Source: Syntrophales bacterium (GTDB taxonomy: Bacteria; Desulfobacterota; Syntrophia; Syntrophales; UBA2210). From it: 64,000 bases of DNA. This document shows, one piece after another, positions 47,026 through 53,300 of the stretch (the first letter of the stretch is position 1; each line of letters starts with the position of its first letter). The translations under genes and the position numbers were made by a program. The stretch lies in contig CAXXNF010000002.1 in the NCBI GenBank assembly GCA_963666365.2, positions 192,001 through 256,000 on the forward strand, written 5' to 3'. The notes under the pieces were generated by a model. The model saw only the letters and a program-made list of their open reading frames with translations. It ran no database searches and was not told the DNA's origin.

Positions 47026-47679
47026 TCAGCCCTTCCAGCCGTGTTCCCCTATGAGACTTACGAAACGGCAGCCGCCAAGGCTTTCAGTTTGGGTCTTCTC
47101 GGGGTCATCGGAAAGGCGCGTGACTCTTGTAAGCGTCTGTGAGTTCCGGTCGCCGACGGGAATGACAAGACGACCGCCCGGCGCAAGCTGCTCTATGAAG
47201 GGCTGGGGAATTTCAGGCGCTCCTGCGGTGACGATGATTGCGTCAAAGGGCGCTTCATCCTTCCATCCGTAGGTGCCGTCACCCACTCTGATGAGCACAT
47301 TGTAACAATTCAACGAGTCGAGAATTTTTCGTGCACGGGAGGCAAGGCCGGCAATGCGTTCCACTGAAAACACCCTGTCGGAAAGCAGGGAGAGAATTGC
47401 CGCTTGATATCCCGATCCCGTGCCTATTTCAAGGACTTTCTCATAGCCCGTAAGTTCGAGCGCCTCCGTCATAAGCGCCACAATGTAAGGCTGAGAGATT
47501 GTTTGACGTTCGCCGATGGGAAGAGGATTGTCCGCGTAGGCCTGATTAATAATGCCCTCGTCGACAAAAAGATGACGCGGAATGGTTTCCATTGCCTTCA
47601 AAAGGGCGCTGTCGGTGATGCCGCGCGCTCGAATTTGCCCATCGACCATCTTGATCCTTTGATTTCTAAAGCGATTCAT
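47026..47679 (-). CDS. pcm: Protein-L-isoaspartate O-methyltransferase
   Basis: [42 protein letters not shown] 47679. Confidence 0.96.
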
Positions 47680-48037
47680 CGTGCCTCGAAAGTTCCCTTC
47701 TCCTGGGGGGGATTTTGTACATTTCATCTACCCATGTGTGTCTGCGCAGGCCGAGCGCCTCCCGTGTCACGATAAGATAATAGCGTCTCAACTCGGCATA
47801 TGCCCGGGCTTGATTAAAGGCCTTAATTTCCCTGTTCAGATCGCGGTACAGGGGTGCGTCGTCTATTTCTTCCTGTTTCCGGGCGTTACGAATGCTATCA
47901 AGCTTTGTCTGTATTGATGTGCCTATATCTTCAAGTCGCGCCAAGGCATCGGACAGGCTTTTGCCCGCCCTGGATAGAACATCGGCCCTTTCTCGGAATA
48001 TTTCTTCCTGGGTCTTTTCGAGTCCTTCTTTGGTCAT
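47666..48037 (-). CDS. Hypothetical helical/coiled-coil protein
   Basis: 123-aa ORF overlapping the pcm start; [11 protein letters not shown] motif; fills the gap co-directionally. Confidence 0.65.
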
Positions 48038-48205
48038 TTTCCGCGTGAGCCCTTCTGCCGGCGGCCCGTTTAATGGTATACGCGACTATCACTAAAAAGT
48101 CCAGTTTTCAACCGAAAATATCCGCACTTCCGCCTTGTATGCATGTTTGACTTTCGAGAGGGGCTGTATTAGGTATAGCCAGTATCCGAGAGAAGGGAGA
48201 AACGA

Positions 48206-49783
48206 ATGACCGAGATGAAGACGGATGCCCTGTCCAACGCCGTCAGAAGGGCCTACGGAAAGGGAACCGATGATGAGATGCTTGAACCGCTGGTGCTTGC
48301 CGATGAGAACGGAAGCCCGAAGGGGCGCTTTCATAACGGCGATGCGGTGATATTTTATAATATCCGCGGAGAACGGGAAATCGAACTGACCAGAAGCCTT
48401 ACGGAAAAAAATTTTTGGGAGTTCCCCGTTCAGAGGGACCTTACGCTGCACTTTGCCACCATGATCGAATACCAGAAAGGATTGCCGGTGGCCGTGGGAT
48501 TCCCTCCCGAAGGTTCCGTTGAAGATACGCTCAGCGGAGTTCTTGCAAAAGAGGGGAAACGCCAGGTGAAAATTACGGAGGCGGAAAAAGCCATCCACCT
48601 GGGATATTTTTTTAACGGAAAACACTCCCGGCCCGAGCGGGGGGAAGAACGAATAGTCATTCCCACACGAAAAGATGTGGTGCTCTTTGATGAAGCGCCG
48701 GAGATGTCCATCGCCGCAATTACCGAAACCGTGCTTCAAAAGCTTGAAGACGACAAGAATGACTGTGTTGTGGTTAATTTCCCGAATGTCGATGTCGTGG
48801 GGCATATCGAAAACCGGGAAGCCATAATCGCGGCGGTTGAGGCAGTGGACAAGGCCCTGGGAGTGGTGGTCGATGCGGCGCTGAGCCTTCATATAACAAC
48901 GATCGTAACCGCCGATCACGGAACGGTGGAAAAATGGTTCTACCCCGATGGGAAAATCGATACGGGGCACACGGATTCGCCGGTTCCCTTTATTCTCGTG
49001 TCGGATCAAGACCTGCCGCCACTCAGATCCAAAGGGGAACTCGCCGATGTGGCGCCCACACTACTTGACCTTATGGGTATTGAAAAGCCGGCGGCCATGA
49101 CCGGCAGTTCACTTCTCTCCGGAGAATGCCGAAAGACACAAAGGGTGCTCTTGTTGATCCTCGATGGGTGGGGTCTGCACCGGAAGGGGCCGGAGAACTT
49201 GATTTTTCAGGCGCATACGCCCGTGATGGATCGTTTATGGAAGTTCTGCCCTTCTGCCGCCCTCGACGCAGCCGGTCGGGCAGTGGGACTGCCGTCTGGT
49301 ACGGTGGGCAATTCTGAAGTAGGTCACTTGCATATCGGCGCAGGCCGAAGGATATATTCGGACAGGGTGAAGATTAACGGGGCGATAGAGGATGGATCGT
49401 TTTTTTTCAATCGCGCCTTCAACGAGGTGATAGAAAAGTCGCTTCAGCAGGGATCCGCTCTTCATCTGATGGGCATTGTGTCGTTTTTCAGTTCTCACGG
49501 GTCCGTCGATCATCTGTTCGCGCTCATGGATCTTGCGAAGAGAAGAGGGGTGAAAAACCTCTTCGTGCACGCCATGCTTGGAAGGCGGGGAGAGAAGCCG
49601 GAAAGCGGCGCACTCTACATAGAAAAGATTGAAAGGCGCTGCCGGGAGCTACAGCTGGGGTCGGTGGCGTCAGTCATCGGGAGGTACTGGTCCATGGACC
49701 GTGAAGAAAACTGGGACAGGATTGAAAAAACATACAGGATGCTCGTGTACGGCGAAGGGACGGGCATTCCGGAAAGGGGGTAG
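48206..49783 (+). CDS. Circularly permuted 2,3-bisphosphoglycerate-independent phosphoglycerate mutase (GpmI/alkaline phosphatase superfamily)
   Basis: Canonical C-terminal motifs (NIRGER, EAEK, PEMS, NVDVVGH, TADHG, HT, LADVAPT, MTG) come first; canonical N-terminal motifs (LILDGWG, VGLP, GNSEVGH, GAGR, GRYWSMDR) come last. Confidence 0.9.
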   Translation: MTEMKTDALSNAVRRAYGKGTDDEMLEPLVLADENGSPKGRFHNGDAVIFYNIRGEREIELTRSLTEKNFWEFPVQRDLTLHFATMIEYQKGLPVAVGFPPEGSVEDTLSGVLAKEGKRQVKITEAEKAIHLGYFFNGKHSRPERGEERIVIPTRKDVVLFDEAPEMSIAAITETVLQKLEDDKNDCVVVNFPNVDVVGHIENREAIIAAVEAVDKALGVVVDAALSLHITTIVTADHGTVEKWFYPDGKIDTGHTDSPVPFILVSDQDLPPLRSKGELADVAPTLLDLMGIEKPAAMTGSSLLSGECRKTQRVLLLILDGWGLHRKGPENLIFQAHTPVMDRLWKFCPSAALDAAGRAVGLPSGTVGNSEVGHLHIGAGRRIYSDRVKINGAIEDGSFFFNRAFNEVIEKSLQQGSALHLMGIVSFFSSHGSVDHLFALMDLAKRRGVKNLFVHAMLGRRGEKPESGALYIEKIERRCRELQLGSVASVIGRYWSMDREENWDRIEKTYRMLVYGEGTGIPERG

Positions 49784-49786
49784 GTG

Positions 49787-50317
49787 ATGGAAGTAACAAT
49801 CAAAAACGCGACGGTGGCGCTGGTAGAGGGCAATATCACTGTCGAGGAAACCGACGCGATTGTAAATGCCGCCAATTCAGGGCTGCGAGGGGGCGGCGGT
49901 GTGGACGGAGCAATTCATCGTGCGGGAGGTCCCACAATCATGGAAGAGTGTCGTCGGATCGGCCATTGTCCTACGGGGGAGGCGGTGATTACGACGGGCG
50001 GAAACCTGAAGGCACGCTATGTAATTCATACGGTAGGTCCGATATATCGGGGTGGCGGACAAGGAGAGGCCGACCTGCTGGCACGCGCCTATCGAGAAAG
50101 CCTTCGAATGGCATCACGCAAGGGGCTTAAGAGTATCGCCTTTCCGGCAATCAGTGCGGGAGTGTACGGATATCCGCTCCACGAAGCCGCACATATCGCG
50201 CTGAAAACCACAATCGACTACCTGAAAGAGCACGAAGACATAGAAACGGCAAGGTTCGTCCTCTTTGACGCAACGACATATAATGCCTTTGTGGAAGAGT
50301 TGAAGCGCCTCTCTTAA
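49787..50317 (+). CDS. Macrodomain O-acetyl-ADP-ribose deacetylase (YmdB-like)
   Basis: DAIVNAANSGLRGGGGVDGAIHRAGG, VIHTVGP, AFPAISAGVYGYP. Confidence 0.94.
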   Translation: MEVTIKNATVALVEGNITVEETDAIVNAANSGLRGGGGVDGAIHRAGGPTIMEECRRIGHCPTGEAVITTGGNLKARYVIHTVGPIYRGGGQGEADLLARAYRESLRMASRKGLKSIAFPAISAGVYGYPLHEAAHIALKTTIDYLKEHEDIETARFVLFDATTYNAFVEELKRLS

Positions 50318-50346
50318 AGGGTCATGCGGCGGGAACAGGGTTGCGA

Positions 50347-53300
50347 ATGAAGGGGAGTATTCAAACAGGAAAAATGCGACGCCTCTGCAGGACAGTTTTT
50401 CTCTCAGCCTGCGTCATTGTTGTCGCAACCTGCGTGGCGGCGGCAGGCTATTATGCCTATCTAAACACGCACCCTGAGATATTGGCAAACTTTGTGGAAG
50501 AGGCCATTGCAAAACGCCTCGGAAAAGCGGTCACCGTTGAAAAGGCGACTGTGTTGCCGGGATTGTCACCGCAGGTGATACTCACCAATGTCACAATTGG
50601 TACGTCCGATGAGCTTTATCTGGCCGCCGAACACCTTGGCGCGCACCTTGCTTTGCATTACATCCTCTTTGGAAAAATAAAAATAGACCATATGGATGTG
50701 CGGCGTCCCGAGATACGGATTCCCTGGCACTGTCTGAAAGGGGGAGCGGCGATAGGTGATTTTGAAGCGCCGCCCCTGGACATAGCCGGGGGAAGAATAA
50801 TTATCACAAAGGAAAGCGCCCATTTGATTATTGACGAAGTGCAGGGATCAATCAGTAAGAATTCCGCGCAGCTGTGCATGCATATCTTGGGGGGAGAGGC
50901 CGCCATAAAGGTGTCGCGGGGGATTGTTTCAGTGCAGGGTACGCTCAATCTCAACAACATAGCGCTCGATCGGATTGATCCCCGGATGAATGGAACCTTC
51001 GATATTAAGTCGGAGTTCCAAGCCGGCATTTTTCGCAAGGTTCTTTCCGTTGCGGCGAATGCGAAGAATGTGCGGCTTCCCTGGCTCAAGGGCACGCTCG
51101 ATGAGGTGAACATCGCGCTCGACGGCAAGGGAACAGTGGGTGGTCTGAATATTGAAAATATCACCCTCAAGACGAAGGTCTTCAATATGGGGGGGAGCGG
51201 CAGGATTTCCCAGTGGACCGGCATAGGCGCGTTTCCCGATTCGCTTCTCGAACTCACCATGCAGTCCTCTGAGGTTGACTATGAAACGCTGGTGGACCTG
51301 CTCCCCCTGAAACATTTTCCCGAGTGGTTATCCCTGTTGCTGGATCGTCAGATTCGTGATGGAACGATTCATTTTTCCCGCGTCGCCTATAAGGGATCTT
51401 TGGGGGATATTTTCACCGCCGATGGTTTAATCAAGGGCCTGACGGTCCGGGCTGCGCTGAAAAATCAAAGTTTCGGCGCCGGTCATGACCCTTCCCGCGT
51501 CGAGCAGATTCAGGGGCAATGCCTGTTCTCAAAGGGACGTATTGCCTTTAGAGATCTGTCAGGGCGGGTCGGGACCTCGTCGATACACTCGGTCAACCTT
51601 GTGTTTTGGGATATCCTTCAGAAAGGGGTGCAGCTTTCCGTGGGCGTGGGTGCGGATATGCCCTTGAGTGATTTTATAACTGCCTGGAAGGCTGTAATGA
51701 CGCCACGGGAACTCTATGACCTGCTGGGGCCGATTTCACATGTTGAGGGAGGCAGAATTGCAGGCAGGGTTGACGCCTGCGCCGATACATCGAAGGGAGA
51801 TGCGACCCTGATCAGGGGAACGGCAACCCTTTCCGGGGCTCACTTCCGATGGCTCGGCTATGAAGTCGAGGCGTCAAAGGCGACGGCACACAGGGGATCA
51901 TATGATGAACCTCTGAAAATTCAGGCCGCCGGATCAGTCCGGGGGCATGTCATTGACTCCCTCGAACTCATCATTCCCCACCCCTTAAAGTCCCCGTCCT
52001 ATGTGTTTTCGCTGTGGACAAAGGAAATCTCCAACATGCCGGGCAGTGCCTTTTTTGAAGGTCATTCACCTATCCAGATCTCGGGAAGAGGCGAGGGGCC
52101 GCATATTGAGGGAGAGGTTCTTTTTTCGGCTGAATCGGTGAGGCTTCTCAGTGAGGGATATCGGCCGAAAGAGGGGATGATCGAGGGTCGAGGAAAGGTA
52201 AAGGCAACGCTTTGGCCGGAGACTGTTGTTGAATTACCTGAACTTGTTTTCACTATGGCGCCGGGAACCTTGAAGGTGCACGGTGCTGTCAAAGGATCTG
52301 CCGGTCGTTTTGGCTTGAAGGGAACGATCGATCTGGCACAGGTCGCTGTGACGGAAGGTGCGAGGTTTGAACCGGAAAAAGGGTTCATTGATGCGGATCT
52401 TGAGGTGACTTGGCGCGAAGAGACCGCGATTACCGGCACTCTCGCTTGTCGGAAGGCATGCCTTGTCCACCGCGGTGAACCACTCGAATTCGACGGTTCC
52501 CTGACGGTTGGGCGTGCCCTCCTTTCGTCTCCGCGCTTCAGCATCACATACCGCGATATGTCGGCGCAGATCGTCGGCGACCTTTCGTTGTCGACGCCGG
52601 AGTCATTTGAAGGGACGGTCAACGTCGACAGCCTCAAAATCGAAAAGAGCTGCGCAGGCAAGGGCGGATGGATGCCTCCCTGTGCCATAAAGAACACGAC
52701 CGTTGTCATCAGCCGTGCACAGGTGTACGGTATTCCCGTGGACAGCATAATCGCCCGTCTCGAGGGCGATGGTGAAAGGCTTTGCGTTATGGACCTCAGG
52801 GCAGATTTATTATCGGGAACCGTCACGGGCAAGGCGGACGTGAAAAAGACAGGCGGGATCGCCGTTGATCTCGATGTTTCGATGGAAAAAATCGACATAG
52901 GAACACTGCTCACTGCCATGTATCCGGAAGAGCCGAAGTTTGACGGGACGGCGACTATCAAGGGACGTCTATGGGGTCCTGTCGATTTGATAAATGGAGA
53001 TATATCATTTGCTGCCGCGGAAGGGCGCATCAAAAAGTATGCGCTTCTTTCGAAAATCTTTGCAGTGCTCAACCCCTACAAGATAATCAGAAGCGGTGAA
53101 ATTGATTTTGCAGGCGAAGGATTTTCATATAATAAGATGGCAGCAACCTTTCAAATCAGAGATGGCATCCTGAGAAGCGATGACTTTTATTTCGACAGCG
53201 ATTCCCTTCAGGCCTCTGCGGCGGGCAGCTATCAGACGAACGACAAAAAAATTGACATGACCGTCATAGTGCAGCCTCTTGAAACGATAGATAAGATAAT

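Follow-up and report, generated by a model that had tools for sequence, protein, structure and literature searches.

A natural circular permutant of bacterial-type cofactor-independent phosphoglycerate mutase with a modified substrate pocket in Syntrophales and related bacteria

Enzymes of central metabolism are rarely found in circularly permuted form in nature, and the cases that exist are informative on protein folding and domain evolution. A gene of a Syntrophales bacterium (NCBI GenBank assembly GCA_963666365.2, contig CAXXNF010000002.1, positions 192,001 to 256,000 of the forward strand; this stretch of 64,000 nucleotides is called the window, and coordinates refer to it) raises two questions of this kind. 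Is its product, P0001, a permuted cofactor-independent phosphoglycerate mutase (iPGM), as a first-pass annotation made from the sequence alone had proposed, and does it still serve as a phosphoglycerate mutase (PGM)? We found that P0001 is a real circular permutant of the bacterial-type iPGM fold, one of long standing that selection has maintained. As judged from sequences and gene content, the enzyme of the main permuted clade is somewhat likely to apply iPGM chemistry to a different physiological reaction.

In a phmmer comparison with PDB sequences, residues 13–304 of P0001 align to residues 220–509 of the Geobacillus stearothermophilus iPGM (1EJJ) with 201 bits, and residues 313–519 align to residues 5–211 with 189 bits. 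Each half shares 38% identity with 1EJJ, and with E-values of 1e-55 to 1e-58 per half the swapped order cannot be a product of chance. The sole parts of 1EJJ without a counterpart in P0001 are canonical residues about 212–219 and the extreme termini, which puts the new break within the transferase domain, where it had been predicted. The NCBIfam model TIGR01307 is likewise matched in two stretches in the genome scan, its positions about 208–504 falling on residues 5–304 and its positions 1–209 following downstream. The Pfam domains PF01676 (Metalloenzyme; 196 bits) and PF06415 (iPGM_N; 189 bits) are each split over two stretches, and PF06415 is interrupted mid-domain, with residues 390–518 corresponding to profile positions 1–129 of 217. 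P0001 is therefore not collinear from N- to C-terminus with 1EJJ or with the bacterial-type GpmI family model, and the half-wise alignments bear out the exchange of GpmI halves put forward in the first-pass annotation. P0001 also matches PF01663, PF00884, and PF00245 weakly over residues 162–292, and these matches, together with the ligand set, correspond to the alkaline phosphatase superfamily core.

Further details of the original description also hold. The linker joining the old termini, first placed at 49113–49145, lies close by, at residues 305–312 (49118–49141), and a ribosome-binding site, an intact 525-codon frame, and a stop codon can be read directly from the sequence (Table 1). The reported spacing of 50 between Asp320 and Ser370 is that of Asp12 and Ser62, to which the two residues align. 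Genes of genus g19 (G033:C6:64386-66092 and G061:C36:13564-15261) carry an in-frame insert of ~130–150 nt (~44 aa) exactly at the inter-half linker, and this joint thus tolerates extra sequence.

An artefact of assembly or gene calling, or the decaying remnant of a tandem duplication, might also produce swapped halves; given the following evidence, we regard either as scarcely credible. A search of 5.8 billion proteins listed at least 120 homologues, and all 120 of those listed are collinear with P0001 at 97–100% coverage and 61–100% identity. Their sources are Syntrophales, Smithellaceae, and metagenome-assembled genomes (MAGs) labelled ‘Deltaproteobacteria’. Domain order in 270 collected proteins was permuted in 131 and canonical in 138, the last being a fragment without one half. 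The region 48000–50400 was compared with public contigs, and no joints were reported over it. One public contig is identical to the region and is possibly its source. From another study, a 744-nt contig (X3 record 6) shows no differences over 48965–49708, which includes the junction, and a 12.4-kb sediment-metagenome contig (run X4) spans the whole region with 71 differences and one gap. Misassembly was considered and is excluded by the collinear homologues, by the presence of the permuted gene in 80/151 genomes of the window's class and beyond, and by the junction-crossing contigs of two further studies. The permutation is thus natural, as originally claimed. Within the window, the frame is intact, it has its own ribosome-binding site, and no iPGM remnants flank it.

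Intermediates of a duplication were also looked for. Nine of the 270 collected proteins are at least 570 aa long, and each contains one copy per half; a search for tandem iPGMs among proteins of 920–2625 aa gave none, its three matches all being fusions of canonical iPGM. This last negative result is weak evidence. The fusion proteins, P0303 (1725 aa), P0305 (947 aa), and P0304 (1205 aa), join canonical iPGM to enolase and phosphoenolpyruvate-utilising (pyruvate phosphate dikinase-type), phosphoglycerate kinase, or NACHT-type domains, according to precomputed Pfam lists.

A single-chain AlphaFold2 model of P0001, built with 42 permuted sequences, has a mean predicted local distance difference test (pLDDT) score of 93.6 and a predicted template-modelling (pTM) score of 0.87. 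Foldseek returned 22 matches to the PDB at E ≤ 0.001. These are iPGM entries with 231–325 aligned columns and template-modelling (TM) scores of 0.37–0.52, and the top entries include 1EJJ, 1O98, 2IFY, the Caenorhabditis elegans, Staphylococcus aureus, and Acinetobacter baumannii enzymes, and two trypanosomatid enzymes. The alignments are partial because a sequential aligner cannot show a permuted protein as one alignment.

The permuted form is widespread in the window's class. Of 151 class genomes, 116 match P0001: 57 have the permuted gene only, 23 have both it and canonical gpmI, and 36 have canonical gpmI only, while the other 35 have neither, these states being assigned from the number and E-value of matches per genome and not from every match row. 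Within the window's order, most families have the permuted form. Among 401 genomes of the phylum, 19 from four families outside the order (f60, f67, f101, and f124) carry full-length collinear genes at 48–61% identity, two of the 19 with one internal stop. The permuted subfamily that had been suspected from a single gene is thus real. In a library of 1.84 billion representatives (50% clustering), 12 of the best 150 matches are collinear in a single stretch, nine of them over the full length. The clusters of two deep representatives include named members, Candidatus Desulfofervidus auxilii and a Pseudomonadota MAG. Outside the class, genome G360 carries two permuted copies, at C73:16769-18334 (61% identity to P0001) and C23:1-903 (58%), the latter truncated by the contig end.

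Does the permuted enzyme supply the PGM activity of its host? In the window's genome, neither canonical gpmI nor gpmA was found above cut-off, and two genes of the apgM family lie outside the window, at C2:894411-895604 (−) and C2:2443057-2444256 (+). One, with 546 and 534 bits, belongs to the PRK04200/TIGR02535 type (‘proposed homoserine kinase’), and its companion, with 532–565 bits, belongs to the PRK04135 type, which answers the question of a second PGM candidate raised in the first-pass annotation. A search of this genome for thrB gave nothing above cut-off. Across the 151 class genomes, the PRK04200/TIGR02535-type gene occurs in 148, gpmA in 32, and PRK04135-type apgM in 58. Three genomes that are 94–98% complete (G076, G118, and G147) have the PRK04200/TIGR02535-type gene only, with no iPGM of either order, gpmA, or PRK04135-type apgM found; as the sole candidate there, it may be their PGM.

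Canonical gpmI behaves as expected of a gene isofunctional with the other PGMs, since it is complementary to them across genomes: only 4/59 class genomes with canonical gpmI also have gpmA or PRK04135-type apgM (3/36 with canonical gpmI only and 1/23 with both iPGM genes). By contrast, one or the other is present in 52/57 permuted-only genomes, much as in the genomes without any iPGM (30/35). The contrast recurs in family f1 (canonical-bearing 3/14 vs. 3/3 and 4/4) and is also seen in f14 (1/3 vs. 2/2 and 5/6), in f15 (0/38 vs. 7/7 and 5/5), and in the mixed genera g29 and g31. When counted as genus-state units, 27/29 permuted-only units have gpmA or PRK04135-type apgM against 1/13 canonical-bearing units. 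Five permuted-bearing genomes outside the class each have another PGM candidate. The permuted gene is therefore not complementary to gpmA and apgM in the class, a pattern other than that expected for the GpmI role, and we report this non-complementarity here as new. Because its carriers resemble genomes without any iPGM, the permuted enzyme is probably not the housekeeping PGM. These counts, together with the 23 genomes that keep both iPGM genes, speak against P0001 being an ordinary isozyme for interconversion of 3-phosphoglycerate and 2-phosphoglycerate (3PG/2PG) that happens to have a permuted topology, in which case the co-resident PGMs would be redundant or condition-specific partners.

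The active site bears on the same question. The two-metal site and nucleophile of G. stearothermophilus iPGM, which we take to be Asp12, Ser62, Asp403, His407, Asp444, His445, and His462, are matched at all seven positions by D320, S370, D196, H200, D237, H238, and H255 of P0001, and the canonical metal-ligand motifs have their aligned counterparts in NVDVVGH, TADHG, and TGHT of P0001. The site list for C. elegans iPGM agrees with this metal and serine pattern (PMC5382265). All seven residues are invariant in 42 diverse permuted proteins, and so are H374, K128, R54, R57, R493, R499, and H431. The retention of metal ligands, phospho-serine, and phosphate-binding Arg/Lys residues that had been noted in P0001 is therefore a property of the family. 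For substrate binding in 1EJJ, presumably by His123, Arg153, Asp154, Arg185, Arg191, Arg261, Arg264, and Lys336, seven of the eight positions are retained in P0001. The exception is Asp154, which we assume to contact the substrate in 1EJJ and 1O98.

We compared the pockets of 126 main-clade, 133 canonical, and three second-group rows (the second permuted group is described below). The Asp154 position is Gly or Ser in 126/126 main-clade rows, in contrast to Asp in 98% of the canonical rows. Of 99 columns that are conserved at ≥85% in canonical enzymes, the main clade keeps the majority residue in 83 and differs in 16. The motif changes listed in the first-pass annotation, GRRG (459–462), FSSHGS (428–433, for GGVHSH), and NIRGER (52–57, for NFRPDR), are all present and are family-wide; the replacements shared by deep branches are given in Table 1. 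A Syntrophales-type subclade has further changes, including Asp151 to Gly and Gly152 to Arg, which give GRRGE, and several others. The clade-wide loss of Asp154 and the three further conserved pocket changes are unfavourable to an ordinary isozyme. Because the pocket changes are clade-wide and other PGMs are not replaced, a different substrate or activity gains indirect support.

An altered pocket in a protein that, from the genome pattern, is not needed as a PGM would also suit a catalytically dead, or a purely regulatory or structural, iPGM derivative. We consider this very unlikely, given that neither the seven positions of the metal site and nucleophile nor the phosphate-binding residues vary among the 42 permuted proteins; this invariance leads us to expect an active enzyme.

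For phylogenetic analysis, the halves were aligned separately and concatenated in canonical order. FastTree was run on 27 permuted and 133 canonical rows, 160 in all; rows with an incomplete half had been dropped, and of P0001–P0120 only P0001–P0003 and every eighth of P0004–P0120 were retained. The main permuted clade (24 rows) has a support of 0.994. A second permuted group, comprising P0124, P0128, and P0133, has a support of 0.894 and is sister to two canonical rows. In an IQ-TREE ‘quick’ analysis (LG+C20) of 64 rows, in which 14 of the 27 permuted rows were joined by the 42 canonical ones from the enclosing subtree and by eight others, the main clade again forms one branch (Shimodaira–Hasegawa-like approximate likelihood ratio test 97), and the second group falls within a mostly canonical set. 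Constraining the 14 permuted rows to one origin costs 84.8 log-likelihood units, with a P value of 0.044 in the approximately unbiased test (IQ-TREE LG+G4 --fast), which is weak evidence only, because the constrained search may be suboptimal. On this weak evidence, two independent permutations probably occurred at the same loop, the second group being a separate event. Members of the second group are metagenomic, one being named only ‘bacterium’, and they share the break region and half order of P0001. Unlike the main clade, they keep DGRD, GVHS, and NFRxDRAR and have an ordinary pocket. Since this group retains every canonical motif, permutation and pocket change are separable.

We propose the following model for P0001. 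Its chain would start at canonical residues about 212–219, which form a loop on the surface of the transferase domain, and would then run through the C-terminal phosphatase half and an 8-residue linker into the former N-terminal 211 residues. Judging from the retained residues, the mechanism would be that of an iPGM: the Arg/Lys/His cluster would hold a small anionic phospho-ester, and two metal ions and Ser370 would accept its phosphoryl group and then pass it on. The phyletic pattern and the pocket changes suggest that PRK04135-type apgM is the housekeeping 3PG/2PG mutase of the window's genome, and that the permuted enzyme may act as a phosphomutase or phosphatase in a different reaction, whose substrate would be a small phospho-acid, phosphoglycerate-like or otherwise. 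In its fullest form, the model would make the main clade a new enzyme and not a PGM isozyme: a phosphomutase or phosphatase that arose from iPGM, acts on another small phospho-acid, and is widespread among anaerobes of the syntrophic and sulfate-reducing kinds, where annotation has overlooked it because of the swapped order. In addition, the same loop would have been permuted at least twice independently. We put forward this combined statement tentatively, with slightly less than even confidence.

Several observations weigh against a change of reaction. Every named substrate-binding residue apart from the Asp154 equivalent is kept, so 3PG/2PG mutase activity is quite possible. The TIGR01307 score of P0001, 495.5 bits, exceeds the cut-off of 330.65, although only as the sum of two stretches, neither of which passes alone. 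The phyletic argument is one of correlation, and the genomes compared are related to each other, mostly metagenome-assembled, and incomplete, with states assigned in the summary manner given above. Five of the 57 permuted-only genomes (G052, G072, G107, G108, and G125) have neither gpmA nor PRK04135-type apgM, and G052 is 100% complete. The near-universal PRK04200/TIGR02535-type apgM relative may be a PGM in its own right, and the niche argument is less clear-cut for that reason. Lastly, no conserved neighbour pointing to an alternative substrate was found in nine related loci and five outside the class, the neighbourhood being conserved only as far as synteny within the order.

The retained residues, the summed TIGR01307 score, and the five permuted-only genomes are what an ordinary isozyme would predict, and the second permuted group, with its fully canonical pocket, shows that a normal active site can go together with permuted topology. 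To be set against these are the genome pattern, the pocket changes, and an NF003897 score of 413 bits that is well under the cut-off of 862. We therefore view an isozyme as a real but rather doubtful possibility, and we continue to favour a different physiological reaction.

The immediate surroundings of the gene are included in Table 1. The downstream Macro-domain gene has its own GGGGG-rich ribosome-binding site within the 3′-end of the permuted ORF, no terminator-like site was found between the two genes on the + strand, and the pair is probably co-transcribed in the window. A Macro gene occupies this place in only 4/9 related loci, and a radical-SAM gene is found there in four others. The divergent upstream genes are the 123-aa ORF, pcm (9/9 related loci), a DedA-family gene (6/9), and a LysM gene. 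The five permuted loci outside the class have unrelated neighbours. The promoter scan was uninformative, returning no sigma-70-like sites and a single terminator-like site on the + strand, inside the ORF (48663–48680). A look-up of RNA data sets containing this stretch listed none.

Table 1. Features of the permuted iPGM gene and its surroundings, with coordinates in the window and residue numbers of P0001.
Feature	Residues of P0001	Position	Strand	Remarks
123-aa ORF		47666..48037	−	No Pfam match; divergent; overlaps start of pcm; same place in 8/9 related loci
Shine-Dalgarno-like AAGGGAG		48193..48199	+	6 nt 5′ of ATG; direct reading
Permuted iPGM ORF (P0001)	1–525	48206..49783	+	ATG 48206; TAG 49781–49783; circularly permuted iPGM-family protein
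Canonical iPGM 220–509	13–304	48242..49117	+	1EJJ alignment; second part of transferase domain and C-terminal part of phosphatase domain
RGERE, for canonical RxDRA	54–58	48365..48379	+	Asp263 to Glu clade-wide
Metal ligands	D196, H200, D237, H238, H255	within 48242..49117	+	1EJJ alignment
Linker SGECRKTQ	305–312	49118..49141	+	Old C-terminus to old N-terminus; variable in family
Canonical iPGM 5–211	313–519	49142..49762	+	1EJJ alignment; N-terminal part of phosphatase domain and first part of transferase domain
Ser62 (1EJJ)	S370	49313..49315	+	Predicted phospho-serine nucleophile in GNSEVGH; invariant
SSHGS, for canonical GVHSH	429–433	49490..49504	+	His123 equivalent kept; Val122 to Ser clade-wide
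GRRG, for canonical DGRD	459–462	49580..49591	+	Asp154 equivalent lost, Arg153 equivalent kept
Macro-domain gene (PF01661, 160 bits)		49787 (ATG) or 49784 (GTG)..50317	+	At ATG, begins 3 nt past the stop of the permuted gene
Asp12 (1EJJ)	D320			Count on 1EJJ alignment
His66 (1EJJ)	H374			1EJJ alignment
His123 (1EJJ)	H431			1EJJ alignment
Arg153 (1EJJ)	R461			1EJJ alignment
Asp154 (1EJJ)	G462			1EJJ alignment
Arg185 (1EJJ)	R493			1EJJ alignment
Arg191 (1EJJ)	R499			1EJJ alignment
Arg261 (1EJJ)	R54			1EJJ alignment
Arg264 (1EJJ)	R57			1EJJ alignment
Lys336 (1EJJ)	K128			1EJJ alignment
Asp154 to Gly or Ser	462			Shared by deep branches; no Asp in any main-clade row
Val122 to Ser	430			Shared by deep branches
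Asp263 to Glu	56			Shared by deep branches
Val64 to Ala	372			Shared by deep branches

The iPGM is a hinge enzyme of two domains; in P0001, the cut falls within one of them, and only eight residues seal the old termini. Homologues are named variously as ‘alkaline phosphatase family protein’, ‘sulfatase-like hydrolase/transferase’, and ‘phosphoglycerate mutase’, the NCBI names of the alkaline phosphatase or sulfatase-like kind being under-annotation caused by the permutation. As a result of such inconsistent naming, a PGM is either overlooked or counted once too often when the metabolism of syntrophic bacteria is reconstructed. Judging from the phyletic result, it is probably wrong to count the permuted enzyme as the glycolytic PGM, and a large group of anaerobes may possess an additional phosphoryl-transfer activity. 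No published description of a permuted iPGM was found in the openly available part of the literature searched, which did not extend to subscription papers, and the word stem ‘permut’ does not occur in the available text of a survey of bacterial PGMs (Foster et al., 2010; PMC2964296).

Among known systems, P0001 is closest to bacterial-type iPGM (GpmI/GpmM; TIGR01307; 1EJJ, 1O98, 2IFY, 4MY4, and 5KGM), the best fold match of its model, with which it shares two Pfam domains, the metal ligands, the serine nucleophile, and the substrate cluster. Bacterial-type iPGM is collinear, whereas P0001 is permuted at the transferase loop, closed by its 8-residue linker, and marked by four clade-wide pocket changes, and members of its family do not take the place of other PGMs in genomes. 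Archaeal-type iPGM (apgM; TIGR00306, PRK04135, and PRK04200/TIGR02535) shares the alkaline-phosphatase-like metalloenzyme core, and residues 173–268 of P0001 weakly match TIGR00306 (39 bits). Unlike P0001, however, the archaeal-type enzymes are ~400 aa long and have a different substrate-binding insert, and the question of PF06415 domain order does not arise for them. Matches of P0001 to other mutases and hydrolases of the alkaline phosphatase superfamily (the phosphopentomutase DeoB, PhpG, and sulfatases) are weak and confined to the metal-binding core, with scores far below cut-offs.

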